A stretch of DNA of 32,000 bases from Candidatus Nanosynbacter lyticus (GTDB lineage Bacteria; Patescibacteriota; Saccharimonadia; Saccharimonadales; Saccharimonadaceae), in contig NZ_CP124549.1 in NCBI RefSeq assembly GCF_030253515.1, positions 210,001-242,000 of the forward strand, in the 5' to 3' direction. Positions 1 through 19,851 of this stretch are shown here, piece by piece. The position numbers and the translations under genes were made by a program. The notes under the pieces were generated by a model. The model did no database searches. It was not told the origin of the DNA and worked only from the letters and a program-made list of their open reading frames with translations. The first letter of the stretch is position 1. The number at the start of each line of letters is the position of its first letter.

Positions 1-1138
1 TATCGTTGACGCGGCTGGCGATAAAAAAGTAATTATGGTCAATAAAAAGATTGAAGCAGATAAGAAAGATAAATTACCAGAATATGGCAATTCGGCAGAA
101 GAAGCTGACAAAAATAAAGCATCGGCGGCGCGCAGCAAATATTTGCTCAACGACAAGGATTTGGAAAAGATCCGACGAACACCGCACGTAAAAACGGTAA
201 CGCCGGCGTATTCGACTGATGGCGTGGCGTATGCTAAAAGTTCAGCGAGTGATAAAAAATTTGCACTGACGGTGGGTGTTAAAATGGATAGGACTCGGGC
301 GGAATTGGCAGCAGGAACCCTGGAGGATTTTATGCCAAAACCGGGCGAGATTATCATCCCGAATGATTATGTGAAGCAGTTAGGCTTTAAGGATGCGCAG
401 TCGGCAATTGGCCAGACGATAACCTTGGGTGTGCGTAGCGCAGCGCAGGGCGGCAATGTCGCCAAAGAGGTATCATTCAAGATCGCGGCGGTGGACAAAA
501 AATCAGACACCATTTTGTTTTATGAACCAATGCTGAGGATTTCGACGGCTGATGCCAAGGCTATTTATGAATTCAGCCACGACAAGAGTCAACCGCATCA
601 GTATTCAACGGCGATTGCTATGGTGGATGATGAGAAAAATGTTGATACCGTGAAAGACGAAATCAATAAAGATTACAGTGCGTATTCGATTCAGGATATT
701 CGAAAAACGTTGCTGACAATGGTCAATGTGGCTCAAGCGGCACTGGCGTCATTTGGTGGATTAGCATTGCTGGCCAGTGTGTTCGGGATTATTAACACTA
801 TGTATATTTCGGTGCTGGAGCGTACCAGCCAAATTGGTTTAATGAAGGCGCTGGGGATGCGTGGTCGTGATATTGGTAAGTTGTTCCGTTATGAGGCAGC
901 GTGGGTTGGCTTGTTAGGCGGACTGATTGGCGTTGGGCTGGCAAGCTTGGTGACGCTATTAAACCCAGTAATTACCAGTGTCTTAAGATTAGGTGCCGGG
1001 ACTAATTTGCTAGTAATTGATCCGCTGCAAATCGGGCTACTGGTCTTTGGACTAGTGGTGATGGCGGTAATTTCTGGCTGGCTGCCAAGCCGCAAAGCAA
1101 CAAAATTAGACCCAATTGAGGCATTAAGGACGGAATAG
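1..1138 (+). CDS. ABC transporter permease, MacB/FtsX type (5' end outside window)
   Basis: The frame is open from base 2 through the first ATG at 35. The product lacks the N-terminal TM helix present in the paralog at 5417-6775. A long hydrophilic region is followed by an FtsX-type C-terminal TM bundle. It shares identical runs with the paralog: ISVLERT, QIGLMKALG, LFRYEAAWVG, KLDPIEALRTE. Confidence 0.9.
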   Translation, partial: IVDAAGDKKVIMVNKKIEADKKDKLPEYGNSAEEADKNKASAARSKYLLNDKDLEKIRRTPHVKTVTPAYSTDGVAYAKSSASDKKFALTVGVKMDRTRAELAAGTLEDFMPKPGEIIIPNDYVKQLGFKDAQSAIGQTITLGVRSAAQGGNVAKEVSFKIAAVDKKSDTILFYEPMLRISTADAKAIYEFSHDKSQPHQYSTAIAMVDDEKNVDTVKDEINKDYSAYSIQDIRKTLLTMVNVAQAALASFGGLALLASVFGIINTMYISVLERTSQIGLMKALGMRGRDIGKLFRYEAAWVGLLGGLIGVGLASLVTLLNPVITSVLRLGAGTNLLVIDPLQIGLLVFGLVVMAVISGWLPSRKATKLDPIEALRTE

Positions 1139-1148
1139 GAGAGAGGTC

Positions 1149-1847
1149 ATGATTGAACTAAAAGATGTAACGAAGATTTACGGCAAAAAGAAAAACCAAT
1201 TTACCGCGCTGAAAAATGTCAGCTTGACTATTCCGACAGGAGCCAGCGTGGCAATCCTCGGCAAATCTGGTTCTGGAAAATCGACGCTGATGCACGCGAT
1301 TTCCGGGCTGGACAGGCCGCAGCACGGCCAGGTGATCATCGACGGGCAAGACATCTTGCAGCTGAAGCCGAAGCGCGTCGATGAGTTTCGCGCCAAGAAA
1401 ATCGGCTTCATCTTCCAGAGTTTTTTTGTCCAAGGCAATGAGAGCGTGGTTGATAACGTTAGCTTGCCGCTGGAAATTGCCCGGTTGCCGCGCAAAAAGC
1501 GAGCGCACAAAATTAACGCGGCGCTTAAGGCGGTGGATTTGTACGATAAGCGCAAAAACCGTGCCAAAGATTTGTCGGGCGGGCAAAAGCAGCGCTTGGC
1601 GATTGCTAGGGCGATTGTCGGCGATCCGCAAATCATCTTTGCCGACGAGCCGACCGGCAACCTGGACAGCGAAACTGGTGCTAAGGTGGAAGGATTGCTA
1701 TTTGATTATAATAAGCAAAAGGGTGTCACGCTGATTGTAGTGACACACGACGTCGACCTGGCGAAGAAATGCGATTATCAGATCATAATTAAAGACGGGC
1801 GGGTTGAGAAATCGACCGTGCCAGAGGAGAAAAAGCATGGACGTTAG
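1149..1847 (+). CDS. ABC transporter ATP-binding protein (MacB/LolD-like)
   Basis: Walker A GKSGSGKST, Q-loop FIFQSF, signature LSGGQKQR, Walker B IIFADEPTGNLD, H-loop VVTHD. AGGAGAG lies 5 nt upstream of ATG 1149. Confidence 0.95.
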   Translation: MIELKDVTKIYGKKKNQFTALKNVSLTIPTGASVAILGKSGSGKSTLMHAISGLDRPQHGQVIIDGQDILQLKPKRVDEFRAKKIGFIFQSFFVQGNESVVDNVSLPLEIARLPRKKRAHKINAALKAVDLYDKRKNRAKDLSGGQKQRLAIARAIVGDPQIIFADEPTGNLDSETGAKVEGLLFDYNKQKGVTLIVVTHDVDLAKKCDYQIIIKDGRVEKSTVPEEKKHGR

Positions 1848-2181
1848 TGCTTACGCCGAAAGCTTAGCGATTCAGCTGCGTAAAGGTTTTTTGGTGTACT
1901 GCGTACTGTTAGTGTGTGCTAAACAACCACAGTACACTGGTGATATCGTCAAGCAACTGAGCGAGTCGGAGCTGATGGTGGTTGAGGGGACAATTTACCC
2001 GCTGCTCAGCCGCTTGCAAAAATACGGCTATTTGCAGCACGAATGGCAAGAAAGCGAACAGGGACCGCCGCGCAAATACTATTCACTCACCGACACCGGT
2101 GCACAGCTAGTAAATGAATTGAAGGATCGTATAAAAATGTTGAACACTTCGCTAAAAGATCTTGAGAAAGGAGCAAAGTGA
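1837..2181 (+). CDS. PadR-family winged-helix transcriptional regulator
   Basis: PadR-like motifs YTGDIVKQL ... GTIYPLLSRLQKYGYL ... RKYYSLTDTG. I moved the start from the track's TTG 1804 to ATG 1837, which has GAGGAG (1824-1829) 7 nt upstream. It overlaps the upstream ATPase gene by 11 nt. Confidence 0.85.
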   Translation: MDVSAYAESLAIQLRKGFLVYCVLLVCAKQPQYTGDIVKQLSESELMVVEGTIYPLLSRLQKYGYLQHEWQESEQGPPRKYYSLTDTGAQLVNELKDRIKMLNTSLKDLEKGAK

Positions 2182-3464
2182 TGAAAGAAATAACCAGAAT
2201 CCATTTGGCAAAAACGCCGTTTAGTGTGGAAGTTGATGCTAAAAAATCATTGGAAAAATACCTGAATTTAATCCAGAAAAACATGCATGCCGAGCCAGAA
2301 GCTATGCGCGAAATTGAAGCGCGAATGGTGGAGCTTTTGGCGGAGCGCGGCGTGTCGAAGGACGGCGTGATCAGTCACGACGACGTTTTGGCAGTGCAAA
2401 AACAAATGGGCGAACCGCGCGATTTTTCGGATGATGACGAGGCGGTGGAGACCGATGACGAGCCCGAGCGTTCAGAGCGACGGCTGATGCGTGATACGGA
2501 ACATGCGCTGATTGGTGGCGTGTGTGCAGGCATCGCTGCCTATTGGGGAACCAATCCTTTGTGGGTACGGTTGTTGTTCATTTTTTCGCCATTTATTACC
2601 TTTGGCGCAGCGGTACTGATTTATATCGTGATGTGGCTGTCAGTTCCAGAGGCGCGGACTGCCTCTGATAAGCTCCAGATGCGCGGCAAGGCGGTAACGT
2701 TTGATTCGCTGAAGCGTCAGGCCAGTCGGAATGAGTCATCCGTAGGGCGGAATAATAACACGGGTCATACGGCAGCAAAAGTGTTTCGATTTATTCTTGG
2801 TGTTGGTATTCTCATGGTAACGCTGGGGCTGTTGGTGGCGCTGATCGTGGGGGCGATCAGTGGCATCGCGGTGATTGGTTTGCTTGATGGATTCTATGCA
2901 CAGCCGTGGGCGTGGGGTCTGTGGGCATCCTTACTCGTTGGTGGCGTGGCGGCGGTATGGCTGGGCGCGATATTGAGCCACAGCGCCTTTACGTGGACAT
3001 TAAAGCGGCTATCGGTGGTTATGACGGTGGTGGCGCTAGTTGTGGGAGCGCTATCGGTTTCGGGAATGACGCTGTTTGGTGTCGGTATGGCGAATGAGCT
3101 AGCACGTGACGAGGAGCGCTTGACAAAAATCGTGCCGGTTGAACTGCCAAGTGATATGAAGGGCGTGAAGTATGTCCACGTCGAGGGTGGAAGTGTCCCG
3201 TTACATTTTGGGGATACGACCCGAGGTGATATCAAGATTGAACTGCGCTATATAGACCTCAAGGGCAAGCGCCAGCAGCCAAAGGTGTCGGCGGTACGTG
3301 ACGGTGATAAGCTTGTGCTCAGAGTTGAAAATCAGCGTAGTCGCTGTCGCACAACGTGGTTTGGCCTCTCGCCAGAGCTTGACGTCGACTGCTTCGGGTT
3401 TGTGCGATTGCACGTGTCTGGGCCGCTGTCGCCATCGCCCGTACCACAATCAAGCAACGCATAG
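2178..3464 (+). CDS. PspC-domain membrane protein with DUF1700-like N-terminal domain and beta-rich C-terminal domain
   Basis: PspC signature LIGGVCAGIAAYWGTNPLWVRLLFIF and about 4 further hydrophobic helices. The N-terminal ~85 aa has the helical pattern seen in PadR-partner DUF1700 proteins (recalled from memory, not searched). The start (GTG 2178 or ATG 2181) overlaps the PadR stop TGA at 2179-2181. Confidence 0.8.
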   Translation: MMKEITRIHLAKTPFSVEVDAKKSLEKYLNLIQKNMHAEPEAMREIEARMVELLAERGVSKDGVISHDDVLAVQKQMGEPRDFSDDDEAVETDDEPERSERRLMRDTEHALIGGVCAGIAAYWGTNPLWVRLLFIFSPFITFGAAVLIYIVMWLSVPEARTASDKLQMRGKAVTFDSLKRQASRNESSVGRNNNTGHTAAKVFRFILGVGILMVTLGLLVALIVGAISGIAVIGLLDGFYAQPWAWGLWASLLVGGVAAVWLGAILSHSAFTWTLKRLSVVMTVVALVVGALSVSGMTLFGVGMANELARDEERLTKIVPVELPSDMKGVKYVHVEGGSVPLHFGDTTRGDIKIELRYIDLKGKRQQPKVSAVRDGDKLVLRVENQRSRCRTTWFGLSPELDVDCFGFVRLHVSGPLSPSPVPQSSNA

Positions 3465-3533
3465 TGAGCGTGAAGGTTGGCGAATGCTTACTGAGCTGCT
3501 ACACTGAAGGGATGAGAAGGAGCTATTAAGCAA

Positions 3534-4376
3534 GTGGCGTGGTGGCAGGCGATTATCCTCGGCATCATTGAAGGCGTAACGGAGTTTCTGCCAGTTTCTT
3601 CGACGGGGCACTTGACGATTGTCGAGAAGTTGATGGGGATGAGAATTGATGATCCGAGCCTGACGGCGTTCACGGCAGTAATTCAGATCGGCGCGATCTT
3701 GGCAGCGATCATCTATTTCTGGGGCGATATTTGGCGGGTGCTAAGCGCCTGGTGGCGTGGGCTGTGGTGGAAGCGGGCGCGGCGACAGTTTGATTATGTG
3801 TATGGCTGGGCGATTATTATCGGTTCGGTGCCGATCGCAGTGATTGGACTACTGTTTAAGGATCAGGTCGAGACGGTGCTGCGTAGTTTGTGGTTTGTGG
3901 CGGTGGCGTTGATCGGCTGGAGCCTGGTGATGTGGTGGGCCGATAGGCGTTCAGAGAAAGCCAGTCACCGCAGCGAGCAGCAAACGACGTGGCGAGATAC
4001 GCTGGCGATTGGTGTGGGGCAGTGCCTGGCCTTGATACCGGGTATCAGTCGGTCGGGAGCAACGATCTCGGTGGGGCTGCTGCGGGGATTTGACCGAGTG
4101 ACGGTGACGAAGTTGAGCTTTTTCCTCGGTATCCCGGCGCTGGTGGCAGCGGGGCTGCTGGAGATGCTGACCGCCTCAAAGCACATTGCCGGCGGTGTCG
4201 GCTGGACAGCGACGGGACTTGCGACAATTGTATCGTTTGTGGTTGGCTACCTTGCGATATCGTGGCTGCTCAAGTTTGTGGCGCGGAATGACTTCTCGCT
4301 ATTTATTTGGTATCGAGTCGGGCTGGGCGTGCTGATCATTGCTTTGCTGATGAGTGGCGCGATCGGTGCGGTTTAG
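3534..4376 (+). CDS. uppP: undecaprenyl-diphosphate phosphatase (BacA/UppP)
   Basis: N-terminal GIIEGVTEFLPVSSTGHL and later PGISRSGATI motifs, polytopic membrane protein of 280 aa. GTG start with AAGGAG at 3517-3522. Confidence 0.9.
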   Translation: MAWWQAIILGIIEGVTEFLPVSSTGHLTIVEKLMGMRIDDPSLTAFTAVIQIGAILAAIIYFWGDIWRVLSAWWRGLWWKRARRQFDYVYGWAIIIGSVPIAVIGLLFKDQVETVLRSLWFVAVALIGWSLVMWWADRRSEKASHRSEQQTTWRDTLAIGVGQCLALIPGISRSGATISVGLLRGFDRVTVTKLSFFLGIPALVAAGLLEMLTASKHIAGGVGWTATGLATIVSFVVGYLAISWLLKFVARNDFSLFIWYRVGLGVLIIALLMSGAIGAV

Positions 4377-4574
4377 CTCGCCGTTAAAAGCGTATGGTCA
4401 CTTTTCATGCTGCTACCTCGTATTCTTTGGATTGGGCGACTACGGACGCGACTAGGAAATTATAAGTTTTGATCACATTCTTCATTCTATGATACGATTG
4501 TAATATAGAGGTCAGGCTTGGTTATGACATCTTGTCCTTGTTACGACGAGAAACTGCAGGAGTTAGGAGGGAGA

Positions 4575-5420
4575 ATGATAGAGGTCAAACATATTACCAA
4601 GACGTACGGCGGCAAGAAAAATGCTTTCGTGGCGTTAGATGATGTTAATATCGAGATCGCGGATGGGGCGAGTGTGGCGATTTTAGGAAAATCTGGTTCG
4701 GGCAAGTCGACGCTGATGCACGCCATCTCGGGATTGGATAAGCCTGAGCGGGGCGAAGTGTTGATTGATGGCGAGGATATTTTGTGCCTCAAGACGTGGG
4801 CAATAGATAGATTTCGCGCCGAGAAGATAGGCTTTATCTTTCAGAGTTTTTTCGTCGAAGGTGATGAAACGTGTTATGACAATGTCAGTTTGTCGCTGGA
4901 AACTGCTGGCGTCCCTCGTGCTCGGCGCAAGCGGCGCATCGAGTCGGCATTAAAAGCGGTTGATTTGACTGATAAGACCAGGGTGCGTGCTAAACATCTC
5001 TCTGGTGGGCAAAAGCAGCGCCTGGCGATCGCCCGGGCTATTGCCGGTGAACCAGCGATCTTGTTCGCCGATGAGCCGACCGGCAATCTTGACTCGGTAA
5101 CGTCGGCGATGATTGAAGATCTGTTATTTGAGTATCAAAAACAGCACGGCGCAACCTTGATTATCGTGACGCATGATGAAGATTTGGCGAAACGATGTGA
5201 GCGGATTGTTCGTATCAAAGATGGTCGAGTTGAATCTGATTCGGCGATTGAAGACGCAATTCGGATCGCTCAAGGTAAAACGGTGGCCTCGAGGGCTCAT
5301 CGTCATGCCGCCACGGTGACAATTGCTGCCGCAGCTCCTCTACCTGAGCCAAAGAAGCCTCGTCGCCAGACGAAACAGTTAAGAACCACGAAAGCTATCA
5401 AGAAGGAGGCGAAGAAATGA
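4575..5420 (+). CDS. ABC transporter ATP-binding protein, paralog of 1149-1847, with basic C-terminal tail
   Basis: It shares GASVAILGKSGSGKSTLMHAISGLD, KIGFIFQSFFV, LSGGQKQRLAIARAI and FADEPTGNLDS with the first ATPase. I moved the start from 4518 to ATG 4575, which aligns with the paralog's MIE(L/V)K and follows AGGAGGG. An extra ~60-aa Ala/Pro/Lys/Arg-rich tail is present. Confidence 0.93.
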   Translation: MIEVKHITKTYGGKKNAFVALDDVNIEIADGASVAILGKSGSGKSTLMHAISGLDKPERGEVLIDGEDILCLKTWAIDRFRAEKIGFIFQSFFVEGDETCYDNVSLSLETAGVPRARRKRRIESALKAVDLTDKTRVRAKHLSGGQKQRLAIARAIAGEPAILFADEPTGNLDSVTSAMIEDLLFEYQKQHGATLIIVTHDEDLAKRCERIVRIKDGRVESDSAIEDAIRIAQGKTVASRAHRHAATVTIAAAAPLPEPKKPRRQTKQLRTTKAIKKEAKK

Positions 5421-6775
5421 AAACGCTAGATATCGTGCGTCGGGCTGGGCGGAATCTGCGGCGAGCTAAGATGCGCACCTTGCTCACTAGTATCGCCATC
5501 GCGGTGGGTGGCTTTGCGATTACCGCCAGTTTGATGGCTGGCGAGGGTGCGCGGCAATATATTGACAGGATCATCAGCAGTAATATTAATCCTCAAGGAT
5601 TGATGATTGGCAAGGCGAGTGAGGCGTTTACCGGTCGCAGCAATAAGCCACTTAAGGAGTATAAGCCGGACACTGGTACACATCGTGGCGCAGAAGTTGA
5701 GCTATTGACTCTTGATGATATAGCCAAACTGAAGGCGCGCAGTGACTTGAAAGATGTGACGCCGCTATATCAATTGAACCCAAAATACCTGACGTTTAGT
5801 ACCAAGTCTGATAAAAAGTACACGGGCGAGGTAGCGATGCGCGATAGCGGTATTCGTGTTGAGACAGTAGCGGGCAAGGCGATGTCTAAGGGTACTCAGT
5901 TGGGGGATAATGAAGTGATAATACCAGAGTCCTACCTTGAGGAATTGGGAATCTCTGCGGACAAGATCATCGGTAGCAAGTTGACGCTCACCGTTGAGCA
6001 AGCGCCGCAGAAAGTCAGTGAAGAGGACATTGCCAAGGCGTATCGGCAGCGCGGCGAGGCTGGCGTGCGTGAACTAACAAGTAGTAAGTTGAAGCACAAA
6101 GAGCTGACCATTGTAGCGGTATCAAAGAAATCGCCGGAGCAAGCGACGAATACACCAAATACCTATGTCAGCCCAGAGACTGCCAAGGAGCTGACTGAAT
6201 TTGCAACGCTCGGTACGCCGCAGTACCAAAAGTATATTACCGCTTCAGCAACGGTGGCTGATGGTAAAAAGCCCGAAGACGTCAAGAAAGCTCTTAAAGA
6301 TGAATTGAACCTGTCAGTGGTAACTTCGAAAGATATCCAGGAGCTGCTCTTTACGTTCGTAAACTTGCTGCAGTGGATTGTGTTTGGGTTTGGTGTGTTG
6401 GCCTTGGTGGTGAGTATATTTGGCATCGTCAATACTCAATACATTTCGGTGTTGGAGCGAACGCAACAGATTGGACTAATGAAGGCGCTTGGTGCTAGTC
6501 GGCGTGATATTGCCAGGCTGTTCCGTTACGAAGCAGCATGGGTTGGCTTCCTGGGTGGTGCACTCGGAGTGCTCGGCGCGTGGGGAATTGGTGAGTTGTG
6601 TAACCCAATGATCTCTAAGGCGCTTAATTTGGGGGAACATTCACTCCTGATATTTGTACCAATTAGCGGTCTCGTCATTGTCGTCGGGTTGATGTTAGTA
6701 GCAATTATTGCGGGATTCTTGCCGAGCCGCAAAGCGGCGAAGCTTGACCCAATTGAGGCGCTGCGTACGGAATGA
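5417..6775 (+). CDS. ABC transporter permease, MacB/FtsX type (full length)
   Basis: N-terminal TM helix (LLTSIAIAVGGFAITASLMAG), a ~270-aa extracytoplasmic domain, then the FtsX C-terminal bundle. The ATGA start/stop overlap with the ATPase gene suggests translational coupling. Confidence 0.93.
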   Translation: MKTLDIVRRAGRNLRRAKMRTLLTSIAIAVGGFAITASLMAGEGARQYIDRIISSNINPQGLMIGKASEAFTGRSNKPLKEYKPDTGTHRGAEVELLTLDDIAKLKARSDLKDVTPLYQLNPKYLTFSTKSDKKYTGEVAMRDSGIRVETVAGKAMSKGTQLGDNEVIIPESYLEELGISADKIIGSKLTLTVEQAPQKVSEEDIAKAYRQRGEAGVRELTSSKLKHKELTIVAVSKKSPEQATNTPNTYVSPETAKELTEFATLGTPQYQKYITASATVADGKKPEDVKKALKDELNLSVVTSKDIQELLFTFVNLLQWIVFGFGVLALVVSIFGIVNTQYISVLERTQQIGLMKALGASRRDIARLFRYEAAWVGFLGGALGVLGAWGIGELCNPMISKALNLGEHSLLIFVPISGLVIVVGLMLVAIIAGFLPSRKAAKLDPIEALRTE

Positions 6776-6859
6776 CTGGCTCATACTACTTAATTATAGC
6801 TGACCTGTCGTAATTACCCGCGATTTTTGATAAAAATTATGGCTTTTAGAATGTGCTCA

Positions 6860-6868
6860 TGCTATAAT
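6860..6868 (+). promoter_or_regulatory. extended -10 box TGCTATAAT upstream of the collagen-like gene
   Basis: Exact TGCTATAAT lies 48 nt upstream of ATG 6917 in an AT-rich intergenic region. A second TATAAT (6906-6911) and a TACAAT (6911-6916) abut the start codon. Confidence 0.5.
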
Positions 6869-6916
6869 CGTGCTAAATAGGCGTATAGCAAGATCAAATA
6901 GGGGATATAATACAAT

Positions 6917-8962
6917 ATGAACGAGCGCTCAGATAAAACATATGCGAGTCGTAAACTGGTAATATGTTTATTTATCGTCACGATACTGATTATTCTACTG
7001 CTGTGGTGGTGGCCGTGGGGCGGCGGTAATCGCTTTTACAAGGGGGTTCGTCCAGATCAGATTAGCCTACGCCAAAGCAATGGCAAGGTACAGTGGCAGT
7101 TTATGGATGGCGACTGGCAGGATATTGTCTCTCTTTCTGAGTTGCGAGGTGATAAGGGTGAGAAAGGCGACAAGGGTGACAAAGGTGACACTGGTGAGGC
7201 CGGAGCTGCTGGTAAAGACGGTAAAAACGGCGTAAGTACAGGACAGCGTGGAGCTAACGGTCGGGATGGAGCGAATGGTAAAAACGGTGCGACCGGGCCA
7301 AAGGGCGATACCGGTGCTCAGGGTCCAGCTGGTCCACGGGGCCAAAAAGGCGACAAGGGCGAGAAGGGCGATGCCAATGGTGTCGTCGGTCCGGCTGGCC
7401 CACAGGGTCCCAAAGGTGATACTGGCCCACAGGGTCAAAAAGGTGATAAGGGCGACAAAGGTGATACTGGCGCCAAGGGAGATAAAGGAGACGCCGGCGC
7501 TAAGGGTGACAAGGGCGAGAAGGGCGATGCCGGCCAACAGGGTGCTAAAGGTGATACCGGAGCGACGGGCGCACAAGGCCAAAAGGGTGATGCTGGTAAC
7601 GATGGGCGAGAGATTGAGTTACAGAAAACCGCGTTGTATATCCAGTGGCGCTACAGGGGTGATGCTACTTGGAACAACCTCATTGCATTATCTGACTTGA
7701 AGGGTCCGAAGGGCGATAAGGGTGATACCGGTCCACAAGGTCCCGCTGGCCCGCAAGGTGCAGCAGGGTCTCAAGGTGCAACCGGTGCACAAGGTTCTCA
7801 GGGGCCTGCTGGTCCACAAGGCCCGAAGGGCGACACTGGCCCTGCTGGCCCACAGGGCCCAGCTGGTCCCCAAGGCCAAAAGGGTGAGAAGGGTGAAAAA
7901 GGTAATGATGGTCCACAAGGTCCTGCAGGTCCTCAGGGAGCTAAAGGTGATACCGGTCCGGTAGGTCCAGTCGGTCCCGCTGGCCCGCAAGGACTCAAAG
8001 GCGCTAAAGGCGATACTGGAGCGACAGGTGCTCAAGGTCAAAAAGGTGACAAAGGTGACACTGGCCCAGTAGGTCCTCAGGGCCTGCCCGGCCCCCAGGG
8101 TATACCAGGTGTTAAGGGGGATAAAGGTCCTATCGGCCCACAGGGCGCTAAAGGTGACACTGGCCCAGCGGGGCCACAGGGTCCACAGGGCGCTAAGGGT
8201 GAGAAAGGCGAGCCAGGAGCCAAGGGCGACACCGGCCCTGCCGGCCCGCAAGGAGCTAAGGGAGATGCCGGTGCACCTGGAGCTAAAGGCCCGAAGGGCG
8301 ACGCTGGTCCCCAAGGACAAAAGGGTGATAAGGGCGAAGCTGGTGCAAATGCAACAGTTAATGTGACGAATAGTACTCAGCCATGTTCGACTGGCCTTAC
8401 TGTCACGGGCAGTGGTACGCCGAATATTGGACTGACATTTACCGGATCAAACATTCCGGCCGGTGGGTCAATTGGTCAGGTGCTGATGAAAAAGTCGGCG
8501 GCAGATTGTGATGTTGCGTGGAGGAGCTTGCCGCAGGAAACAATGTTTGCCGGTTCCATCGGCGTCGGTAATGGTAACATCACGGCGGTGAATGTTAATG
8601 CTGACACTTATACAGCCATTCCGATGACAACGATCACCACGAATACCGGCGGCGGTACCTGGGATCCGGTGAATCACACGTATACCATTCCAAGCGACGG
8701 TGTATATTTCATCCGTTCCAGTATTCGTACCGTTGACAACTCACCTATGCGTAACATTTACCAAATTGTTAATGACGTGAATGGTGATCGCCCAGAGGGC
8801 ACGTGGTCGTCTAATCAAGCCGGCATTCGCCGTTCGACGCTGCCGTATTCACGGATGATGCGGGCGACAGCTGGTACCAAGCTAAAGTTGATCGTCGTAT
8901 CAGACCTCCAGAGTGTGCAACTCAGCGATGCAAGCCTGACAATTACCAAGCTTTCGAACTAG
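6917..8962 (+). CDS. membrane-anchored collagen-like triple-helix repeat protein with globular C-terminal domain
   Basis: N-terminal hydrophobic anchor ([19 protein letters not shown]) and two Gly-X-Y tracts (aa 78-230 and aa 263-476). A ~200-aa non-repetitive, beta-rich C-terminal domain follows. Confidence 0.9.
7148..7606 (+). repeat. collagen-like Gly-X-Y tract 1 (48 triplets, two single-residue interruptions)
   Basis: Counted by hand. Gly falls at every third residue from G78 to G230, apart from the breaks GVSTG (aa 105-109) and GDANG (aa 151-155). It is dominated by [12 protein letters not shown] triplets. Confidence 0.9.
7703..8344 (+). repeat. collagen-like Gly-X-Y tract 2 (71 uninterrupted triplets)
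   Basis: Counted by hand. Gly falls at every third residue from G263 to G476, and the tract is rich in GPQ/GPA/GDT/GAK. Confidence 0.9.
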
Positions 8963-8992
8963 TGAAGTTAGCGAGATAAATTATCGTATATC

Positions 8993-9001
8993 TGCTACAA
9001 T
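8993..9001 (+). promoter_or_regulatory. extended -10 box TGCTACAAT, leaderless-type promoter of serS
   Basis: Six nt (gatacc) separate the hexamer from ATG 9008, and there is no Shine-Dalgarno sequence. Confidence 0.6.
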
Positions 9002-9007
9002 GATACC

Positions 9008-10303
9008 ATGTTAGATATTCGCTTTATTCGAGATAACGCCGAAGCGGTGCAAGCTGCGGCGAACCACAAGGGGTGTGACGTGTCTATTGCGACATTGTTG
9101 CAATTAGACGACGAGCGTCGTGAGGCGCAGCGGCAGGTTGATGAGTTGCGCCAGCAGCGTAACGAGATTGCTGCGCAGATGAAGGGAGGCAAGCCCGAAC
9201 CAAGCCTGATTGAGCAGGGCAAGGCCATCAAGGCCAAGTTGAGCGGGCTTGAGGCTCAGCTGAGCGAGGTCGAGGAACGCTACATAACGCTACTAAAGCA
9301 GGTTCCTAATATGCCGCACGCCGACGTGCCAGTTGGTCTGAGTGAGGATGAAAACGTTGAAGTAAAGGTCGTCGGTGATATCCCAGCCTTTGATTTTATG
9401 CCGAAAAATCACTACGAAATCGCCGAGGCAAAAGGCTGGCTCGACAAAGAGCGCGCTGCCAAGGTTGCTGGCGCTCGCTTTGCTTATATCATGGGTGATT
9501 TGGTGTTGTTGCAACAGGCAATTATCCAGTTTGTGATCACATCTCTCACCAACCCAGCGGTGATCAAGGAGATCGCCGAAAAGGCTGGCCTTGGTGTCAA
9601 TACAAAACCATTCATCCCAGTGCTGCCGCCATTGATGATCCGTACCGAGCCGTATGATCAGATGGATCGTCTCCAGCCGAGTGATGATCGATACAAAATT
9701 GAAGGCGAGGAACTGTGGCTACAGGGGAGCGCTGAGCATGTGCTCGGTAGTATGCATGCGGGTGAGATTTTTGATGCGAAACAGTTACCACTTCGATACC
9801 TGGGCTTTGCAACCAGCTTCCGCAAAGAAGCAGGGACGTACGGCAAGGATATGGAGGGGCTGATCCGGATGCACCAGTTTGATAAGCTCGAGATGGAGAG
9901 CTTCACCGAGGCGAAGGATAGTTATAACGAGCACCTGCTATTTATCGCGATTCAAGAGTGGCTTTTGGCTCAGCTCAAGCTACCGTACCATGTCCTGATG
10001 AAATGCACCGCTGATATTGGTAAACCAAATGCGCGCGGTGTTGATATGGAAGTATGGTTACCGGGTCAGGGCAAGTACCGCGAGACGCATACTGCTGACT
10101 ATATGACTGACTATCAGGCGCGTCGTTTGATGACGCGGGTGCGCACGGACAACGGAGTTGAATTGATCCACACGAATGATGCGACGGCCTTTGCGCTGGG
10201 GCGCTGCATGGTGGCGATTATTGAGAATTATCAGACCGCAGAGGGTGATGTCATGGTGCCAGAAGCACTTCGCCCGTATATGAATGGCCGCGAGATGATA
10301 TAA
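9008..10303 (+). CDS. serS: seryl-tRNA synthetase
   Basis: N-terminal coiled-coil arm and class II motif 2 (FRKEAGTYGKDMEGLIRMHQFDKLEM). Motif 3 region TNDATAFALGRCMVAIIENYQ. Length 431 aa. Confidence 0.95.
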   Translation: MLDIRFIRDNAEAVQAAANHKGCDVSIATLLQLDDERREAQRQVDELRQQRNEIAAQMKGGKPEPSLIEQGKAIKAKLSGLEAQLSEVEERYITLLKQVPNMPHADVPVGLSEDENVEVKVVGDIPAFDFMPKNHYEIAEAKGWLDKERAAKVAGARFAYIMGDLVLLQQAIIQFVITSLTNPAVIKEIAEKAGLGVNTKPFIPVLPPLMIRTEPYDQMDRLQPSDDRYKIEGEELWLQGSAEHVLGSMHAGEIFDAKQLPLRYLGFATSFRKEAGTYGKDMEGLIRMHQFDKLEMESFTEAKDSYNEHLLFIAIQEWLLAQLKLPYHVLMKCTADIGKPNARGVDMEVWLPGQGKYRETHTADYMTDYQARRLMTRVRTDNGVELIHTNDATAFALGRCMVAIIENYQTAEGDVMVPEALRPYMNGREMI

Positions 10304-10321
10304 TGGAGTCTAGGAGGGTAT

Positions 10322-10564
10322 GTGGCACTGACGAACGATGACAAGCAATGGATCAAGGGCGCGATCGCTGATGGCGTGGTCGAAAGCAGACTACAGGCAC
10401 TGACAAACGACATTAAAGAGATATATGATGTTATTTACGGCAAGCCGAACAAATCGTTTATGAGCGCCAGCTTTGCCAAAATGTCATCGAAAGAAAAGCT
10501 GCTCGTGATTAACGAAGAATTACTAAAAATGGCGAAGGATGCGGGTGTTGTCTTGCCGCGCTAA
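10322..10564 (+). CDS. hypothetical small protein (80 aa)
   Basis: GTG start directly after AGGAGGG (10312-1018 region, i.e. 10312-10318). It fills the serS-hpf gap in the same orientation. I recognised no motif. Confidence 0.45.
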   Translation: MALTNDDKQWIKGAIADGVVESRLQALTNDIKEIYDVIYGKPNKSFMSASFAKMSSKEKLLVINEELLKMAKDAGVVLPR

Positions 10565-10586
10565 CGTATACATAAAAGGAGGAACT

Positions 10587-10961
10587 ATGATCAAAGATAT
10601 TACCATTACTGGCGTCAAATACGAATTGACGGACACCACAAAGAAATACGTTGAGCGCAAAATCGGTGCACTGGGTAAGTACTTGCCGCGGCATGCCCGC
10701 AAGAGCGCGACCGCTGATGTAAAGATCAAGCAGATTGACAACCCTGGCGGCAACAAGTACGAGGTTGAGGTGATTATCAATGTACCGGACAAGAAGATCA
10801 CCGCTAAAGATTCGACGATGAACGTGCTAGCAGCCGTCGATATCGTTGAGGCGAAGCTGAATGGGCAGCTACGTAAGTATAAGGATGATGTGTTGGTGCA
10901 CGTTGGCAGCAGCCGCGGCGTACTGGCACGGTTCAAGCGCGGTTTCCAGCGCGAGCAGTAG
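10587..10961 (+). CDS. hpf: ribosome hibernation-promoting factor / RaiA family (short form)
   Basis: The sequence MIKDITITGVKYELTDTTKKYVERKIGALGKYL ... VEVIINVP ... MNVLAAVDIVEAKLNGQLRKYK matches the HPF/YfiA pattern. I moved the start from 10539 to ATG 10587, which follows AAGGAGG. Confidence 0.85.
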   Translation: MIKDITITGVKYELTDTTKKYVERKIGALGKYLPRHARKSATADVKIKQIDNPGGNKYEVEVIINVPDKKITAKDSTMNVLAAVDIVEAKLNGQLRKYKDDVLVHVGSSRGVLARFKRGFQREQ

Positions 10962-10989
10962 GGGGTTTAAATCAACCCCTTTAATTTTC
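10961..10989 (+). terminator. rho-independent terminator after hpf
   Basis: Stem GGGGTT (10962-10967) pairs with AACCCC (10974-10979) around a 6-nt loop, followed by TTTAATTTT. Confidence 0.6.
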
Positions 10990-11002
10990 CAACCCTGCAC
11001 GG

Positions 11003-11008
11003 TATAAT
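11003..11008 (+). promoter_or_regulatory. -10 box TATAAT of secA (leadered transcript)
   Basis: GGTATAATAT lies ~47 nt upstream of ATG 11055. GAGGGAG Shine-Dalgarno at 11038-11044. Confidence 0.5.
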
Positions 11009-11054
11009 ATATACAGTTTTTGAAAATGCCTGAAAGTGAGGGAGTTTTGAGTTT

Positions 11055-13685
11055 ATGGCAATGACACAACAAAAGGCGCTGAGTAAGATTTTTGGCGATC
11101 CGCAGAAGAAGATTTTGAAGCGGCTGCAGAAGCAAGTTGACGTAATTAACGGTCTGTCTGGAAAGTACGAAAAACTGTCAGACAAGGAGTTGCAGGCGCA
11201 GACAGAGGCGCTGAAAAAACGTCTGACGAAGAAAAACGTAACGCTGGATATGATTTTGCCGGATGCCTTTGCGGTGGCTCGTGAGGCAGCCAAGCGCGTC
11301 ATCGGCGAGCGTCCGTACGACGTTCAGCTAATCGGCGGCATGGTCCTTCATGAGGGCAATGTTGCCGAGATGAAGACCGGTGAAGGTAAGACCCTGGTGG
11401 CGACGCTGCCGACCTATCTCAACGCACTGGAAGGCAAGGGTGTTCACGTGGTGACTGTCAACGACTATCTGGCGCAGCGTGACGCTGGCTGGATGGGCCA
11501 GGTGTATGACTTTTTGGGCTTGACTACTGGTGTGATCATCAACGAAGCGTCATTTGTCTATGACAAAGAGTACGATAATGAGCATCACGACGATCCGCGC
11601 ATGCGCAAGCTCCGTCCGGTCACTCGTAAAGAAGCTTATGCTGCCGACATTACGTATGGCACTAATAACGAGTTTGGCTTTGACTATCTACGCGACAACA
11701 TGGTGAACGACGTTGACTTATTACGTCAGCGCGAGCTGAACTTTGCTATCGTTGACGAGGTGGACTCAATTCTGATCGATGAAGCGCGCACGCCGCTGAT
11801 CATCTCGGCACCAGCAGCAGAGAACCCAGACAATTACTACACGTTCGCTAAAGTTGCCAGTAAATTAGTGCCAGAGGACTATGTTCTGGATGAAAAGCGC
11901 CGCAGCGTGGCGCTGACCGACGAGGGCGTGGAAAAAGTCCAAAAACTGCTGGGAATAAAAAATTTGTACACGCCAGACCACGTGCGCAGTGTGTATCATA
12001 TGGATCAGGCTCTGCGAGCACAAACATTGTTCAAGCGCGACAAAGATTATGTAGTGACCAACGACGGCGAAGTGATCATCGTCGATGAGCACACTGGTCG
12101 TTTGATGCAAGGACGCCGTTACAACGAAGGTTTGCACCAGGCAATTGAGGCGAAAGAAGGTGTGCCAGTGCTGGAAGAAAGCATGACGCTGGCGACCATT
12201 TCGTTCCAGAATTATTTCCGTTTGTATAATAAATTGAGCGGTATGACTGGTACGGCGTTTACTGAAGCTGAGGAGTTTCAGCAAATTTATTCACTGGACG
12301 TTATCCAGATTCCACCGAACAAGCCAGTGATTCGCGACGATAAAGAAGACCTGATTTTCAAGACTGAAAAGGGCAAGTTGAAGGCAGTTGCCGAAGCCAT
12401 CAAAGATTATCACAAGCAAGGCCGGCCGGTGCTGGTTGGTTCTGGTTCGATTGCCAAGAACGAGCAGATTGCTAAATATCTGGAAAAGGAAGGCATCAAG
12501 TTTGAGATTCTAAACGCCAAGAACAATGAGCGTGAGGCGGCCATCATCGAGAAGGCTGGTGAAAAGGGCGCGATTACACTGGCGACAAACATCGCTGGGC
12601 GTGGTACTGACATTAAGCTCGGCAAGGGTGTCAAGGAACTGGGCGGCCTGGTGGTGATTGGTTCGGAGCGGCACGAATCACGACGCATCGACAATCAGCT
12701 GCGCGGTCGTGGCGGTCGTCAGGGCGACCCGGGCGAGACCCAGTTCTACGTATCGACCGAAGATGATTTGATGCGAATTTTCCAGGGCGAGCGTATCGCG
12801 GCGTTGATGGATCGGCTGGGTGTCGACGAAGATACGCCGATTCAAAACCGCGCTGTGTCAAAGACGCTGGAAGCAGCGCAGAAGCGCGTCGAAGGCTATA
12901 ACTTTGATACGCGCAAAAATGTTGTTCAGTACGACAACGTCATTAATCGTCATCGCCGCGTGGTCTACACGATGCGGCGAAAAATCCTTGAAGGCGACAA
13001 TATCCAGCCGGAAATTGAGCGGTTGTTGCGGGACAGAGTCAAAGAGTTAGTGACGCTACCAACCAAAAACAACCCAAAGTTTATCGAGGAATTTACGTCG
13101 GCCTTTCCAGTCGATGAAGCGGCAGTGCGCAAGGTTGGTCTCGAGAAGAAAGACCGTCTGCGCCTCCAAAAAGCCCTAAAACTAGCACGTCAGGCCTACC
13201 AGGAAAAAGATGAAGAAATCGGTACTGAAGAGTTGCGCGGCGTGGAGCGTGAGGTGTATATGGCGGTGCTCGACACCCTGTGGATGCAGCACCTAGAGAA
13301 TATGCAACACCTGCGCGAAGGGATCCACTGGCGCAGCGTTGGCCAGCGCGATCCATTGGTAGAATACCGGGCGGAGTCACAAAAATTGTTCACTAGCCTT
13401 CAGGAAAATCTGCGTAACGAAGTTCTGAACACAATTTTTCATATTCATAAATCCGACGCAGTAATTCGCCAGTCGCAGGATGATGAGTATGACACCGAGC
13501 TAACGCGCCTAGCCGAAAGCGCAGTTGAGCGTGGCGTTAATGAAGTTGGTACGGGCGAGGAAAATCGTGACGGTGACTTTTCGGTGAAAAAGGGTAAATC
13601 TAACGCCGAGTCGAACCGCGCTAAAAACCAAGCACGCAAGAAGAAAAAAGCGCAGCGCCAAAATCGCAAAAAGAATCGCAAATAA
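11055..13685 (+). CDS. secA: preprotein translocase ATPase SecA
   Basis: DEAD-like motor motifs (MKTGEGKTLV, VDEVDSILIDEARTPLIIS, TNIAGRGTDIKLG) in 876 aa. The C-terminus is a Lys/Arg-rich tail with no Cys-containing zinc-finger motif. Confidence 0.97.
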   Translation: MAMTQQKALSKIFGDPQKKILKRLQKQVDVINGLSGKYEKLSDKELQAQTEALKKRLTKKNVTLDMILPDAFAVAREAAKRVIGERPYDVQLIGGMVLHEGNVAEMKTGEGKTLVATLPTYLNALEGKGVHVVTVNDYLAQRDAGWMGQVYDFLGLTTGVIINEASFVYDKEYDNEHHDDPRMRKLRPVTRKEAYAADITYGTNNEFGFDYLRDNMVNDVDLLRQRELNFAIVDEVDSILIDEARTPLIISAPAAENPDNYYTFAKVASKLVPEDYVLDEKRRSVALTDEGVEKVQKLLGIKNLYTPDHVRSVYHMDQALRAQTLFKRDKDYVVTNDGEVIIVDEHTGRLMQGRRYNEGLHQAIEAKEGVPVLEESMTLATISFQNYFRLYNKLSGMTGTAFTEAEEFQQIYSLDVIQIPPNKPVIRDDKEDLIFKTEKGKLKAVAEAIKDYHKQGRPVLVGSGSIAKNEQIAKYLEKEGIKFEILNAKNNEREAAIIEKAGEKGAITLATNIAGRGTDIKLGKGVKELGGLVVIGSERHESRRIDNQLRGRGGRQGDPGETQFYVSTEDDLMRIFQGERIAALMDRLGVDEDTPIQNRAVSKTLEAAQKRVEGYNFDTRKNVVQYDNVINRHRRVVYTMRRKILEGDNIQPEIERLLRDRVKELVTLPTKNNPKFIEEFTSAFPVDEAAVRKVGLEKKDRLRLQKALKLARQAYQEKDEEIGTEELRGVEREVYMAVLDTLWMQHLENMQHLREGIHWRSVGQRDPLVEYRAESQKLFTSLQENLRNEVLNTIFHIHKSDAVIRQSQDDEYDTELTRLAESAVERGVNEVGTGEENRDGDFSVKKGKSNAESNRAKNQARKKKKAQRQNRKKNRK

Positions 13686-13718
13686 ATCTAAAACCGGTGG
13701 GCAGAGAGCGACAGACAG

Positions 13719-14996: not shown

Positions 14997-15006
14997 TAGT
15001 GCTCAA

Positions 15007-15015
15007 TGCTATAAT
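15007..15015 (+). promoter_or_regulatory. extended -10 box TGCTATAAT, leaderless-type promoter of the murD-like gene
   Basis: Six nt (aaacct) lie between the hexamer and ATG 15022, with no Shine-Dalgarno sequence. Confidence 0.6.
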
Positions 15016-15021
15016 AAACCT

Positions 15022-16919: not shown

Positions 16920-16925
16920 AGGGGT

Positions 16926-16934
16926 AGTATAGCA
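16926..16934 (-). promoter_or_regulatory. extended -10 box TGCTATACT (minus strand), leaderless-type promoter of hpt
   Basis: The reverse complement of 16926-16934 is TGCTATACT. Six nt separate it from the ATG at 16919. It is divergent from the prfB promoter. Confidence 0.6.
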
Positions 16935-16972
16935 TGTTTTGTATTTTAGCTGAGTGAATACACACCGATATC

Positions 16973-16981
16973 TGCTAAAAT
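16973..16981 (+). promoter_or_regulatory. extended -10 box TGCTAAAAT, leaderless-type promoter of prfB
   Basis: Six nt (atatcc) separate it from ATG 16988. The context ATATCTGCTA.AAT...CCATG is nearly identical to the serS promoter. Confidence 0.6.
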
Positions 16982-16987
16982 ATATCC

Positions 16988-18067: not shown

Positions 18068-18109
18068 ATAAAGAGCCAGTATATACCTATTCGCACCATC
18101 CTTAAAATC

Positions 18110-18118: not shown

Positions 18119-18125
18119 AGTAGAA

Positions 18126-19807: not shown

Positions 19808-19851
19808 GTTATTTTGTCGCTGACCCCTGAATATTTACTGAGCCAAGGCGC

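Follow-up and report, generated by a model that had tools for sequence, protein, structure and literature searches.

A permease, its partner ABC ATPase, a PadR-family repressor and a PspC-domain membrane protein are encoded by a conserved unit of four genes, with the permease first, in the 32,000-nucleotide stretch of an oral Saccharibacteria (TM7) genome analysed here (hereafter the window). This unit is best explained, with confidence somewhat above even, as a self-regulated operon in which the PadR-sensor pair controls an ABC machine against envelope damage. The type of circuit, a repressor combined with a membrane sensor, was already predicted in 2024. A second pump and the UppP gene lie downstream; both are older neighbours and at most candidate members of the PadR-sensor circuit.

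Positions 1-6775 of the window hold seven genes, all on the + strand, with the following features (bit scores refer to Pfam domains).

2..1138, + strand: permease 1, MacB/YtrF-type, with FtsX (70 bits) and a MacB_PCD extracytoplasmic domain (31 bits)
1149..1847, + strand: ATPase 1, ABC nucleotide-binding subunit and partner of permease 1 (ABC_tran, 125 bits)
1837..2181, + strand: PadR-family winged-helix repressor of the short LmrR-like type, 114 aa (PadR, 71.7 bits)
2181..3464, + strand: PspC-domain membrane protein, the predicted sensor (PspC, 69.5 bits)
2181..2435, + strand: HAAS-like N-domain of the sensor, aa 1-85 (AlphaFold model; HAAS matches in relatives)
2478..2654, + strand: PspC domain of the sensor, aa 100-158 (Pfam)
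2751..3122, + strand: transmembrane bundle of the sensor, three long helices, aa 191-314
3123..3461, + strand: beta-rich C-domain of the sensor with two invariant cysteines, aa 315-427
3534..4376, + strand: UppP/BacA, undecaprenyl-diphosphate phosphatase (BacA, 293 bits; NCBIfam NF001392)
4377..4574, + strand: spacer of about 199 nt ahead of ATPase 2 (read from the sequence)
4575..5420, + strand: ATPase 2, paralogue of ATPase 1 (ABC_tran, Pfam)
5417..6775, + strand: permease 2, MacB/YtrF-type (FtsX, 78 bits; MacB_PCD, 43.5 bits)

The 5' end of permease 1 is cut by the window edge, and about 51 N-terminal residues are missing in comparison to the 429-aa orthologue of locus L003, where positions 5669..6958 hold the gene in full, with its promoter. 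A 10-nt gap separates permease 1 from ATPase 1, which overlaps padR by 11 nt; the ATG of padR is preceded by an AGGAG site, and padR and the sensor gene meet in a TGATG stop/start overlap. UppP scores 364 bits against an equivalog cut-off of 308 (NCBIfam NF001392), and ATPase 2 is extended at its C-terminus by a basic tail about 55 aa long (nt 5256..5417), which ATPase 1 lacks. Almost all genes of the window are closely spaced and lie on one strand. The gene order, junctions, domains and paralogy described in an earlier note on this DNA were all confirmed by the gene map, Pfam searches and pairwise alignments, with FtsX and MacB_PCD found in both permeases, ABC_tran in both ATPases, and PadR, PspC and BacA in the other three proteins.

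In 66/66 related loci, namely all those from genomes having enough upstream DNA, the sensor gene is directly preceded by permease 1-ATPase 1-padR, at unchanged spacing. Conservation of the neighbourhood, which the earlier note proposed to test, holds for these four genes, but not for the seven, which are not one conserved unit: among the 69 sampled loci of this clade, ATPase 2 and permease 2 (module 2) are present in only four, and 44 have uppP next after the sensor. PadR and its sensor form an obligate pair, joined even where all other neighbours differ, with padR directly 5' of the sensor gene in 66/66 Saccharibacteria loci and in seven of seven places from six distant relatives, whose sensors share about 27-33% identity with the window protein. 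As had been proposed, the dyad is operonic with MacB-type ABC modules, and this was seen for three clades, in three positions and arrangements; in three distant relatives (L082, L083 and L085) the surroundings of the dyad contain no ABC genes.

The PadR protein matches the solved structure 5h20 (E 7e-29), and its recognition helix and wing are nearly invariant among relatives with only 42-79% overall identity. The AlphaFold model of the sensor (pLDDT 88.8) starts with an N-domain of three helices, the third kinked at G77-x-P79, and continues with PspC, the transmembrane bundle and the beta domain; 61 diverse relatives all have G77, and at least 90% of them have P79. The N-terminal region of the sensor gave no match to DUF1700, which was listed among the domains to be checked; instead, the newer HAAS model weakly matches 11 of the 61 relatives (best E 1e-3), while DUF2807 matches 16 and LiaI-LiaF-TM_PspC is also matched. 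The window sensor itself falls below the HAAS and DUF2807 models. Its C-domain is probably Toastrack-like, given a weak fold match to 4qrk/Toastrack structures (E 0.12-0.28).

The operon promoter is located outside the window, about 190 nt upstream of position 1, and carries an invariant block of about 25 nt with the palindrome CATAGTACTATG, placed downstream of the -10 element and ahead of the transcription start. Each of 63 loci has a single copy of the 14-nt palindrome ACATAGTACTATGT, in every case at the promoter of the operon. In eight diverse loci the block ACCTTGTATAACATAGTA.TATGTA is kept while its flanks diverge, the sole exceptions being two single-base changes in L007, and conservation across 59 distinct metagenome versions is confined to TTGAC (-35) and the block. 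The block also persists 5' of padR in distant lineages, with its centre changed symmetrically from GTAC to GATC in L083. When the whole collection was scanned with a 20-nt motif, 80 loci were found, 70 of them with enough sequence on the 3' side; in about 66 of these 70, permease-ATPase-padR-sensor or padR-sensor(-ATPase-permease) follows directly. Throughout about 1 Mb of related DNA, the sole conserved operator-like site is at the promoter of this operon. PadR is predicted to be an autorepressor of its own operon, with the block as candidate operator; because it also covers core promoter elements, promoter function and not repressor binding could account for some of the conservation. The form of the palindrome, ACAT-N6-ATGT, is unlike the ATGT-N8-ACAT site known for other PadR proteins. 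Within positions 1-9100 of the window, a consensus scan listed no promoter-like site on the + strand.

Adjacency in small, compact and syntenic genomes could produce such a layout with no functional coupling, PadR regulating something else, as the close one-strand spacing of almost all window genes and the same synteny of the housekeeping genes serS, hpf and secA would allow. This is highly improbable, however, as MacB-type modules from three clades, in as many positions, have been combined with the dyad, its junctions overlap or nearly touch, this promoter alone has the conserved operator-like site across about 1 Mb of related DNA, and PadR and sensor are inseparable among otherwise different neighbours.

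The paralogy of the two modules is far above chance for both subunits, with 67% identity over 227 aa between the ATPases (E 1e-111) and 42% over 361 aa between the permeases (E 3e-70), which share long stretches of identical residues in their C-terminal, FtsX-type portion. Modules 1 and 2 form separate clades: ATPase 1 is 82-98% identical within the oral clade, and ATPase 2 clusters with ATPases adjoining uppP and serS in other Saccharibacteria. Permease 2 belongs to an older clade, which throughout Saccharibacteria has the gene order (uppP-)ATPase-permease-serS, and its orthologues have 58-96% identity among the best 120 listed. The layout is mirror-imaged because the window holds both arrangements. 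Locus L170 has a seven-gene layout identical to that of the window, while module 2 was lost from most oral relatives; in L003 it is deleted and a 115-nt remnant of ATPase 2 survives.

The earlier note had read the seven genes as one lipid II-cycle antibiotic sensing and detoxification unit, in which bacitracin- or lantibiotic-like drugs would induce both pumps and UppP, as in BceRS-BceAB-BcrC. The position of uppP 3' of the sensor in 44 of the 69 loci, only 5 nt after it in L090, is in line with this, but both uppP and module 2 are missing 3' of the sensor in the remaining 25 oral-clade loci, the closest complete genome has module 2 deleted, and environmental relatives have the order padR-sensor-ATPase-permease-serS with uppP absent. 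Similarly, uppP-ATPase-permease are kept together while their flanks change, and in L005 padR-sensor-uppP-ATPase-permease are tightly packed behind the operator, with 12 nt between uppP and the ATPase; yet uppP and the ABC pair also occur in L091 and L092 with no PadR or sensor gene within 5.4 kb and 5.0 kb, respectively, upstream of UppP. The window has no terminator-like site in the sensor-uppP and uppP-ATPase 2 intervals, but the inclusion of uppP and ATPase 2 in the regulated unit is not supported by the motif search, which found no operator-like site 5' of either gene in the window, L091 or L092, nor a PadR operator-like site in the spacer of about 199 nt (4377..4574). The operon of YtrF-type transporters is induced by lipid II-cycle inhibitors, and the gene that comes next in loci without uppP encodes a glycosyltransferase fusing GT2 and PMT_2/YkcB parts, a type which also uses undecaprenyl-phosphate carriers; both favour a common unit. 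On the other hand, UppP may be a plain housekeeping enzyme, and adjacency is weak evidence in a compact one-strand genome because serS, hpf and secA are equally syntenic. A single seven-gene unit is decidedly unlikely, and uppP is a neighbour, possibly co-transcribed by read-through, with unproven membership of the unit.

Among solved structures, YtrF of B. subtilis is the closest to both permeases (9o9x; E 3e-22 for permease 1 and 7e-25 for permease 2), which favours a reading where the circuit is the same, but the ABC modules would be YtrEF/FtsEX-like mechanotransducers tuning wall synthesis or turnover, serving envelope homeostasis of the epibiont and not resistance. The Ytr operon (ytrGABCDEF, B. 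subtilis) responds to lipid II-cycle disturbance, and expression of the Ytr transporter stimulates wall synthesis and turnover, a consistent role in antibiotic survival being unconfirmed (PMC12772383). As in the window, YtrEF has its ATPase on a polypeptide of its own and a permease with four transmembrane helices and an extracytoplasmic domain; unlike in the window, the regulator is the GntR-type YtrA instead of PadR and a membrane sensor, and a second transporter, YtrBCD, is present. Homeostasis would also suit the finding of no membrane-fusion partner among the genes beside either module, and the cell-envelope neighbours UppP, Mur ligase, ftsEX and CHAP hydrolase. We nevertheless consider it unlikely: canonical ftsEX with the CHAP hydrolase is already present at 18126..21023, the moderate likeness to YtrF is mostly confined to the FtsX half, with extracytoplasmic domains, which would define the partner or substrate, diverging strongly even between modules 1 and 2, and characterised PadR regulators mostly control exporters of toxic compounds (LmrR-LmrCD, LadR-MdrL).

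The HAAS-PadR dyad has been proposed as an alternative to two-component systems of histidine kinase and response regulator (Ravi et al. 2024, mSystems, PMC11237479), and the idea that PadR and a membrane PspC protein stand in for such a system agrees with this published proposal. In common with the described dyads, a standalone PadR gene adjoins a membrane-protein gene with no pspA nearby, and the sensor shares with 'theme i' a GxP-kinked three-helix N-domain, PspC, a transmembrane bundle and a Toastrack-type C-domain (PMC11237479). The window dyad differs in being co-operonic with a separate MacB-type ABC module, in its deeply conserved candidate operator, and in a sensor that has diverged too far to reach the HAAS and DUF2807 models of Pfam. 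The same article describes fusions of HAAS to FtsX/MacB_PCD, and Toastrack in company with ABC and a GntR regulator, but not a dyad with a separate MacB-type module, and its main text does not mention Saccharibacteria or other candidate phyla. A partly studied relative of the circuit is the LltR operon of Listeria monocytogenes (lmo0599 PadR, lmo0600 DUF1700 membrane protein, lmo0601 DUF4097 protein), where the PadR-like LltR autorepresses its own operon 100-150-fold, and where liaIH and an ABC transporter are mildly induced once LltR is inactivated (Hauf et al. 2019, PMC6624303). A PadR-type regulator is again encoded with HAAS/DUF1700 and Toastrack/DUF4097 parts, but these are on separate proteins, PspC is absent and the operon contains no ABC transporter. 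The combination had been thought uncharacterised, which is partly right, although the regulator-sensor pair was described computationally in 2024 and the Listeria relative has been studied.

The bacitracin modules BceRS-BceAB with BcrC and BcrR-BcrABD of E. faecalis are alike in concept: a sensor linked to the membrane governs an ABC transporter, and an undecaprenyl-diphosphate phosphatase is found close by, that of bcrABD being a BacA/UppP homologue in the same operon. Unlike the large, ten-helix BceB, the window permeases are MacB/YtrF-type proteins of 429-452 aa with a single FtsX domain; a two-component system or BcrR-type regulator is not adjacent, and UppP is not a constant member. The FtsX + MacB_PCD permease fold is shared with MacAB-TolC of E. 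coli and the Acidobacterial PadR/ADOP pairs (TIGR03433/TIGR03434), but the present system has no fused ATPase, MacA-type adaptor or outer membrane, and its permeases are single whereas those of ADOP are duplicated. Among NCBIfam models, PadR matches TIGR03433 best, and TIGR03434 (ADOP) is best or joint-best for the permeases, tied with lolCE for permease 1, all far below the cut-offs; these two families are genomic neighbours of each other.

Regarding the history of the locus, UppP and ATPase 2-permease 2 derive from an older padR-sensor-[uppP]-ATPase-permease-serS arrangement, to which the oral clade added a different module 5' of padR, under the same promoter, before mostly losing the downstream one. 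Transcription may read through into UppP and module 2, their control by PadR being a candidate only. For the self-regulated four-gene operon that we prefer, the comparisons show the order of the genes, their conservation and that of the promoter/operator, the domain make-up and the history of both modules; we infer the DNA binding, HAAS-PadR signalling, stimulus and substrate as follows. PadR would bind the palindromic operator CATAGTACTATG and switch the promoter off, while the HAAS-like N-domain of the sensor, predicted to be cytoplasmic, would interact with PadR. Damage to the membrane or cell wall, detected by the PspC segment, transmembrane bundle and C-domain, would change the hold of HAAS on PadR and lead to derepression. 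An efflux or detoxification output is the weakest step, because the role of the YtrF operon in antibiotic survival could not be confirmed (PMC12772383). The product of derepression would be a MacB/YtrF-type ABC machine, in which ATP would move the extracytoplasmic domain, most likely to remove or displace, on the outer side of the membrane, a compound that acts on the envelope.

The seven genes of the locus all lie on the forward strand, at the positions and in the order proposed by the earlier note, and are listed here in window coordinates.

Table. Genes of the locus
2..1138, +, permease 1 (about 51 residues cut off by the window edge)
1149..1847, +, ATPase 1
1837..2181, +, PadR regulator
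2181..3464, +, PspC-domain membrane protein of 427 aa, here called the sensor (Pfam PspC)
3534..4376, +, UppP (Pfam BacA and NCBIfam)
4575..5420, +, ATPase 2
5417..6775, +, permease 2

The junctions described for the first four genes were confirmed: 10 nt separate permease 1 from ATPase 1, padR begins behind an AGGAG site and overlaps ATPase 1 by 11 nt, and the padR stop and the sensor start overlap in TGATG. Pfam and NCBIfam returned the expected domains, namely FtsX and MacB_PCD, ABC_tran, PadR, PspC and BacA/UppP. The paralogy of the permease 1-ATPase 1 pair (module 1) and the ATPase 2-permease 2 pair (module 2) also held. Identity is 67% between the ATPases (E 1e-111) and 42% between the permeases (E 3e-70), the long identical runs between the permeases falling in the FtsX half. 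A basic, low-complexity tail of 25-55 aa extends the C-terminus of ATPase 2 (window 5256..5417) and of its orthologues (255-281 aa), and is absent from the 232-aa ATPase 1 clade. UppP is a full-length member of the UppP/BacA phosphatase family by curated threshold, scoring 364 bits against the NCBIfam equivalog NF001392 (cut-off 308), 245 bits against TIGR00753 (cut-off 217.5) and 293 bits against Pfam BacA. Scanning 1..9100 for consensus promoters and terminators gave counts not above those of shuffled sequence and no promoter-like site on the + strand; it only shows that the genes have no obvious terminator between them.

Gene order was mapped by tblastn over 80 related genome loci (designated by L-numbers), 66 of which had enough DNA upstream of the sensor gene and 69 enough downstream. 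The sensor gene is immediately preceded by permease 1, ATPase 1 and padR, always at the same spacing, in 66/66 loci, whereas the downstream side varies: uppP is present in 44 of the 69 loci, uppP together with module 2 in four, and neither in 25. The seven genes are thus not a single conserved unit: the permease 1-ATPase 1-padR-sensor operon is constant, and the presence of uppP and module 2 varies. One further locus, L170, has the same seven-gene layout as the window. Relatives of the sensor protein all derive from Candidatus Saccharibacteria (TM7), and the closest complete genome is that of oral taxon 488 strain 106.1.1 (CP128407, locus L003), with about 91% DNA identity over window 1-4402.

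The presence of two modules in mirrored order is explained by history, an older downstream and a newer upstream module coexisting here while most relatives retain one of the two. In trees and identity matrices the modules fall in separate clades, with between-clade identities of 39-43% for permeases and 65-68% for ATPases, which rules out a recent tandem duplication; the distance from either module to that of the distant relative L081 is similar to the distance between the two. Permease 2 orthologues are common in Saccharibacteria, with identities of 58-96% for the best 120 listed. Two loci, L005 and L006, are without module 1 and read promoter-padR-sensor-uppP-atp2-perm2-serS, with a 12-nt gap between uppP and the ATPase gene, and L090 reads padR-sensor-uppP-NUDIX-atp-perm-serS-hpf-secA; in L091 and L092, uppP-atp-perm-serS occurs with no padR or sensor gene nearby. 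In L003, module 2 is gone and a 115-nt remnant of ATPase 2 is kept (window 4664-4776 corresponds to L003 10220-10334, 90% identical), a gene loss caught in progress; the remnant (10218..10334) joins directly onto the sequence that follows permease 2. The two modules thus show ongoing gene replacement within a reduced genome. Across genomes, permease 1, ATPase 1 and PadR share 91-96% protein identity with a DNA identity of 82-84%, so that recent horizontal transfer is unsupported as the cause. The 91-96% range also holds between the window and L009-type genomes, for which UppP is about 75% identical and serS (window 9008..10303) 44-45%; this points either to replacement of serS in one lineage or to exceptional conservation of the operon.

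The operon promoter lies outside the window, some 190 nt before its first position. In L003 (region 5590..5668) it consists of TTGACA, a 17-nt spacer and TAACAT, followed by a leader with AAGGAG, and the candidate PadR operator in this region is CATAGTACTATG. Each of 63 loci has a single copy of the perfect 14-nt palindrome ACATAGTACTATGT, in every case at the operon promoter, which in L005 drives padR directly. The block ACCTTGTATAACATAGTA.TATGTA is shared by eight diverse loci whose flanks diverge, and only L007 departs from it, by two single-base changes. The block is retained upstream of padR even in lineages whose sensors are only about 27-33% identical, and in these lineages the recognition helix and wing of PadR are nearly invariant; in L083 the centre of the block is changed symmetrically, from GTAC to GATC. 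Scanning a metagenome collection with TTGTATAACATAGWACYATG gave 80 loci. Downstream DNA sufficed in 70 of them, and in about 66 of these 70 the next genes were perm-atp-padR-sensor or padR-sensor(-atp-perm-serS), with padR adjoining the sensor gene. Two of the exceptions look like chance matches and two have no explanation. Among 59 distinct versions, the only positions conserved outside the retrieval motif were the -35 element TTGAC and an adjoining TAC. We infer that the conserved block is the PadR operator, spanning about -9 to +3, and that the operon is autorepressed.

No second operator was found in the window, including before uppP and ATPase 2, nor upstream of uppP or the ATPase gene in L091 and L092; the single match in the window, at 11871 with three mismatches, is at chance level. 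The full 30-nt CCATAGTACCTTGTATAACATAGTACTATG also occurs on two metagenome contigs (L124 2058..2077 and L155 1678..1697, oriented coordinates), in AT-rich DNA that looks unlike that of Saccharibacteria, where a -35 element is missing and neither padR nor ABC genes follow. A leaderless padR starting from an ATG inside the motif was dropped because the N-terminal extensions called from it are not conserved.

The sensor was modelled with AlphaFold from 61 diverse relatives (pLDDT 88.8, about 95 over aa 1-80), which replaced an unusable run on 16 close homologues (pLDDT 52). In the predicted structure a beta-hairpin is followed by three helices, the PspC segment, three long transmembrane helices and a beta-rich C-domain. 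The N-domain helices span 18-35, 39-55 and 66-76, then come G77-E78-P79 and a last stretch at 79-82, so that the third helix is kinked as in a HAAS-type fold with its GxP motif; across the 61 sequences G77 is invariant and P79 at least 90% conserved. This N-domain is near-identical among homologues only 52-55% identical overall, and an exhaustive search for it gave 632 clusters, with PspC present in 10/10 of those sampled. In the 61 family members, Pfam found PspC in 61, DUF2807, which bears on a Toastrack-type C-domain, in 16 (best 1.4e-10), HAAS in 11, all weak (best E 1e-3), and LiaI-LiaF-TM_PspC in three. The window protein itself matches only PspC (69.5 bits), with no hit to Pfam HAAS (PF22564) or DUF1700 at E up to 10 or up to 1; DUF1700, for which the earlier note had proposed a search, was equally absent from ten relatives (0/10). 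A fold search against the PDB returned nothing below E 0.1, the weak matches being 3lyc and 4qrk (E 0.12-0.28), and a family profile search against PDB sequences gave nothing meaningful. A word-index homology search with the 101-aa N-domain recovered short same-family fragments only and was uninformative.

The sensor is not of the PspC orthologue type of the classical PspABC system, since it scores 55.6 against a cut-off of 104 for the equivalog TIGR02978, with only the 58-aa PspC domain matching, and no PspA or PspB partner was found by Pfam among 27 window ORFs (a set without 16380..16997 (-) and a few smaller ORFs). Three features suggest that its C-domain lies outside the cell. These are the loop charges within aa 191-427 (window 2751..3461; net +1 at 272-275, net -0.5 at 235-240), the C-domain cysteines, which are even in number (2 or 4) for 53/61 relatives, and the TIG domain that one relative carries at its C-terminus. 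The PspC segment would then have to be a re-entrant hairpin. Such a placement conflicts with the intracellular one proposed for Toastrack domains, of which 4QRK is cited as an example (PMC11237479).

Pairs of this kind have been described as a "HAAS-PadR-like wHTH" system and proposed as an alternative to two-component systems (Ravi et al. 2024, PMC11237479). In that model, a computational proposal only, a signal alters the HAAS-PadR contact and hence transcription (PMC11237479). In the present family a standalone PadR-like wHTH gene stands beside the gene for the HAAS-like protein, padR adjoining the sensor gene upstream in 66/66 genome loci and in all seven places examined for six distant relatives. 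The nearest studied case is the LltR operon of Listeria, which encodes PadR, a DUF1700 membrane protein and a DUF4097 protein and is strongly autorepressed (PMC6624303). At the present locus, PadR would repress its own operon by binding the operator, and the sensor would relieve this repression through HAAS-PadR contact. The PadR-sensor pairing, and the suggestion of the earlier note that PadR and a PspC protein would replace a two-component system, are well supported by comparative evidence; the idea is not new, having already been published, and the locus therefore adds a member to a computationally defined kind. Saccharibacteria are not mentioned in the main text of the defining paper (PMC11237479), and a literature search on Saccharibacteria with PadR or PspC found nothing on this locus.

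The fold class of the permeases is clear, that of type VII mechanotransmission ABC transporters. Both score above the Pfam cut-offs for FtsX and MacB_PCD, and MacB structures are among their PDB sequence matches. They resemble MacB of MacAB-TolC in the four-helix FtsX arrangement with MacB_PCD between TM1 and TM2, but the ATPases are separate genes rather than N-terminal fusions, the scores against the MacB equivalog NF007826 are 66-67 bits (cut-off 966), and no adaptor gene was found among those called beside the modules in the window or the L003 upstream region. The closest solved structure is Bacillus subtilis YtrF (E 7e-25 for permease 2 and 3e-22 for permease 1; the matches, at query residues 223-452 and 127-378, lie mostly in the C-terminal half to two-thirds), followed by MacB, Spr0695, LolC/E/F and FtsX. 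Among the genes called in the window there is no GntR regulator and no YtrBCD. The ytr operon is a marker of lipid II-cycle inhibition, and its transporter appears to promote cell-wall synthesis rather than give resistance (PMC12772383). The NCBIfam equivalog cut-offs for MacB, LolCE and FtsX are all far above the permease scores, which against FtsX equivalogs reach 36-51 bits (cut-offs 225-255). BceAB-BceRS systems differ in that the permeases here have 429-452 aa and one FtsX domain, not the ten-helix BceB type, and the modules adjoin PadR, the sensor, UppP and a collagen-like protein, with no BceRS-like pair. Nor are the modules cell-division FtsEX, because a genuine ftsE-ftsX cluster (FtsX_ECD) with a coiled-coil/CHAP hydrolase, in a PcsB-like layout, is located separately at 18126..21023; a CtpB-like S41 protease follows the hydrolase, and the whole cluster covers 18126..22261. 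Three FtsX-fold ABC systems thus occur in 20 kb of the window, and the genome of the closest complete relative is about 0.86 Mb.

Across lineages, MacB-type modules from three clades share an operon with the PadR-sensor dyad, and they take three positions. In the oral clade the module lies upstream of the dyad, in L081 and the environmental loci it follows the dyad directly, and in L005, L090 and the window a module comes after uppP. Such repeated association speaks for a genuine functional connection of the dyad with this transporter class; some distant relatives have the dyad with no ABC genes nearby.

UppP and module 2 are neighbours of the operon, and a regulatory link to PadR is unproven; the lipid II-cycle reading of the locus is a reasonable hypothesis. 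Downstream in the window follow a collagen-like protein, serS, hpf, secA, an M16 peptidase and a Mur ligase. The collagen-like protein (681 aa, G-x-y repeat, window 6917..8962, between permease 2 and serS) has a weak BclA_C-like C-terminal domain and is strain-variable, 96-98% identical in L001/L077, 78% in L002-L004 and absent here in most others. In L033, one of the 25 loci with neither uppP nor module 2, the sensor gene is followed by a gene for a 905-aa fusion of a GT2 domain to a PMT_2/YkcB-type glycosyltransferase (9349..14115 region), then by a two-component pair, an OmpR-type response regulator with a histidine kinase; the remaining 24 presumably share L033-type downstream genes. Glycosyltransferases of this type use undecaprenyl-phosphate carriers, and a lipid-carrier theme may recur beside the sensor gene. 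GC skew is positive throughout window 1..32000. Of the long ORFs judged to be real genes, only 24772..26226, with methyltransferase domains, is not on the + strand; 28485..29009 is a further methylase-like ORF, and no tRNA genes were found in the 32 kb.

Saccharibacteria are ultrasmall bacteria that depend on a host and have very few regulators; to our knowledge almost nothing is known of how they sense stress. The locus is not a new kind of system; it is a clean circuit in poorly understood bacteria, and what is new is the dyad in a lineage absent from the main text of the paper that defined it. In the broadest reading, put forward as an unlikely one, the operator-PadR-HAAS/PspC-ABC operon would be the main, perhaps sole, inducible envelope-stress circuit of Saccharibacteria, kinase-free, membrane-tethered and lineage-wide with a near-unchanged operator. 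Its MacB-type output and, in host-associated lineages, UppP would guard the undecaprenyl-phosphate/lipid II cycle against cell-wall-active compounds of actinobacterial hosts or oral competitors, and the downstream-to-upstream exchange of the ABC module in the oral clade would be an adaptation to a new chemical environment. The circuit is compact and testable, comprising a single promoter that bears a near-invariant operator, a single repressor, a single membrane sensor and a single ABC output. With its clear operator and its one apparent target operon, the locus would be a good site for testing kinase-free HAAS-PadR signalling. If the link to UppP is true, it would also hint, speculatively, at how epibionts protect the lipid carrier of their cell wall.
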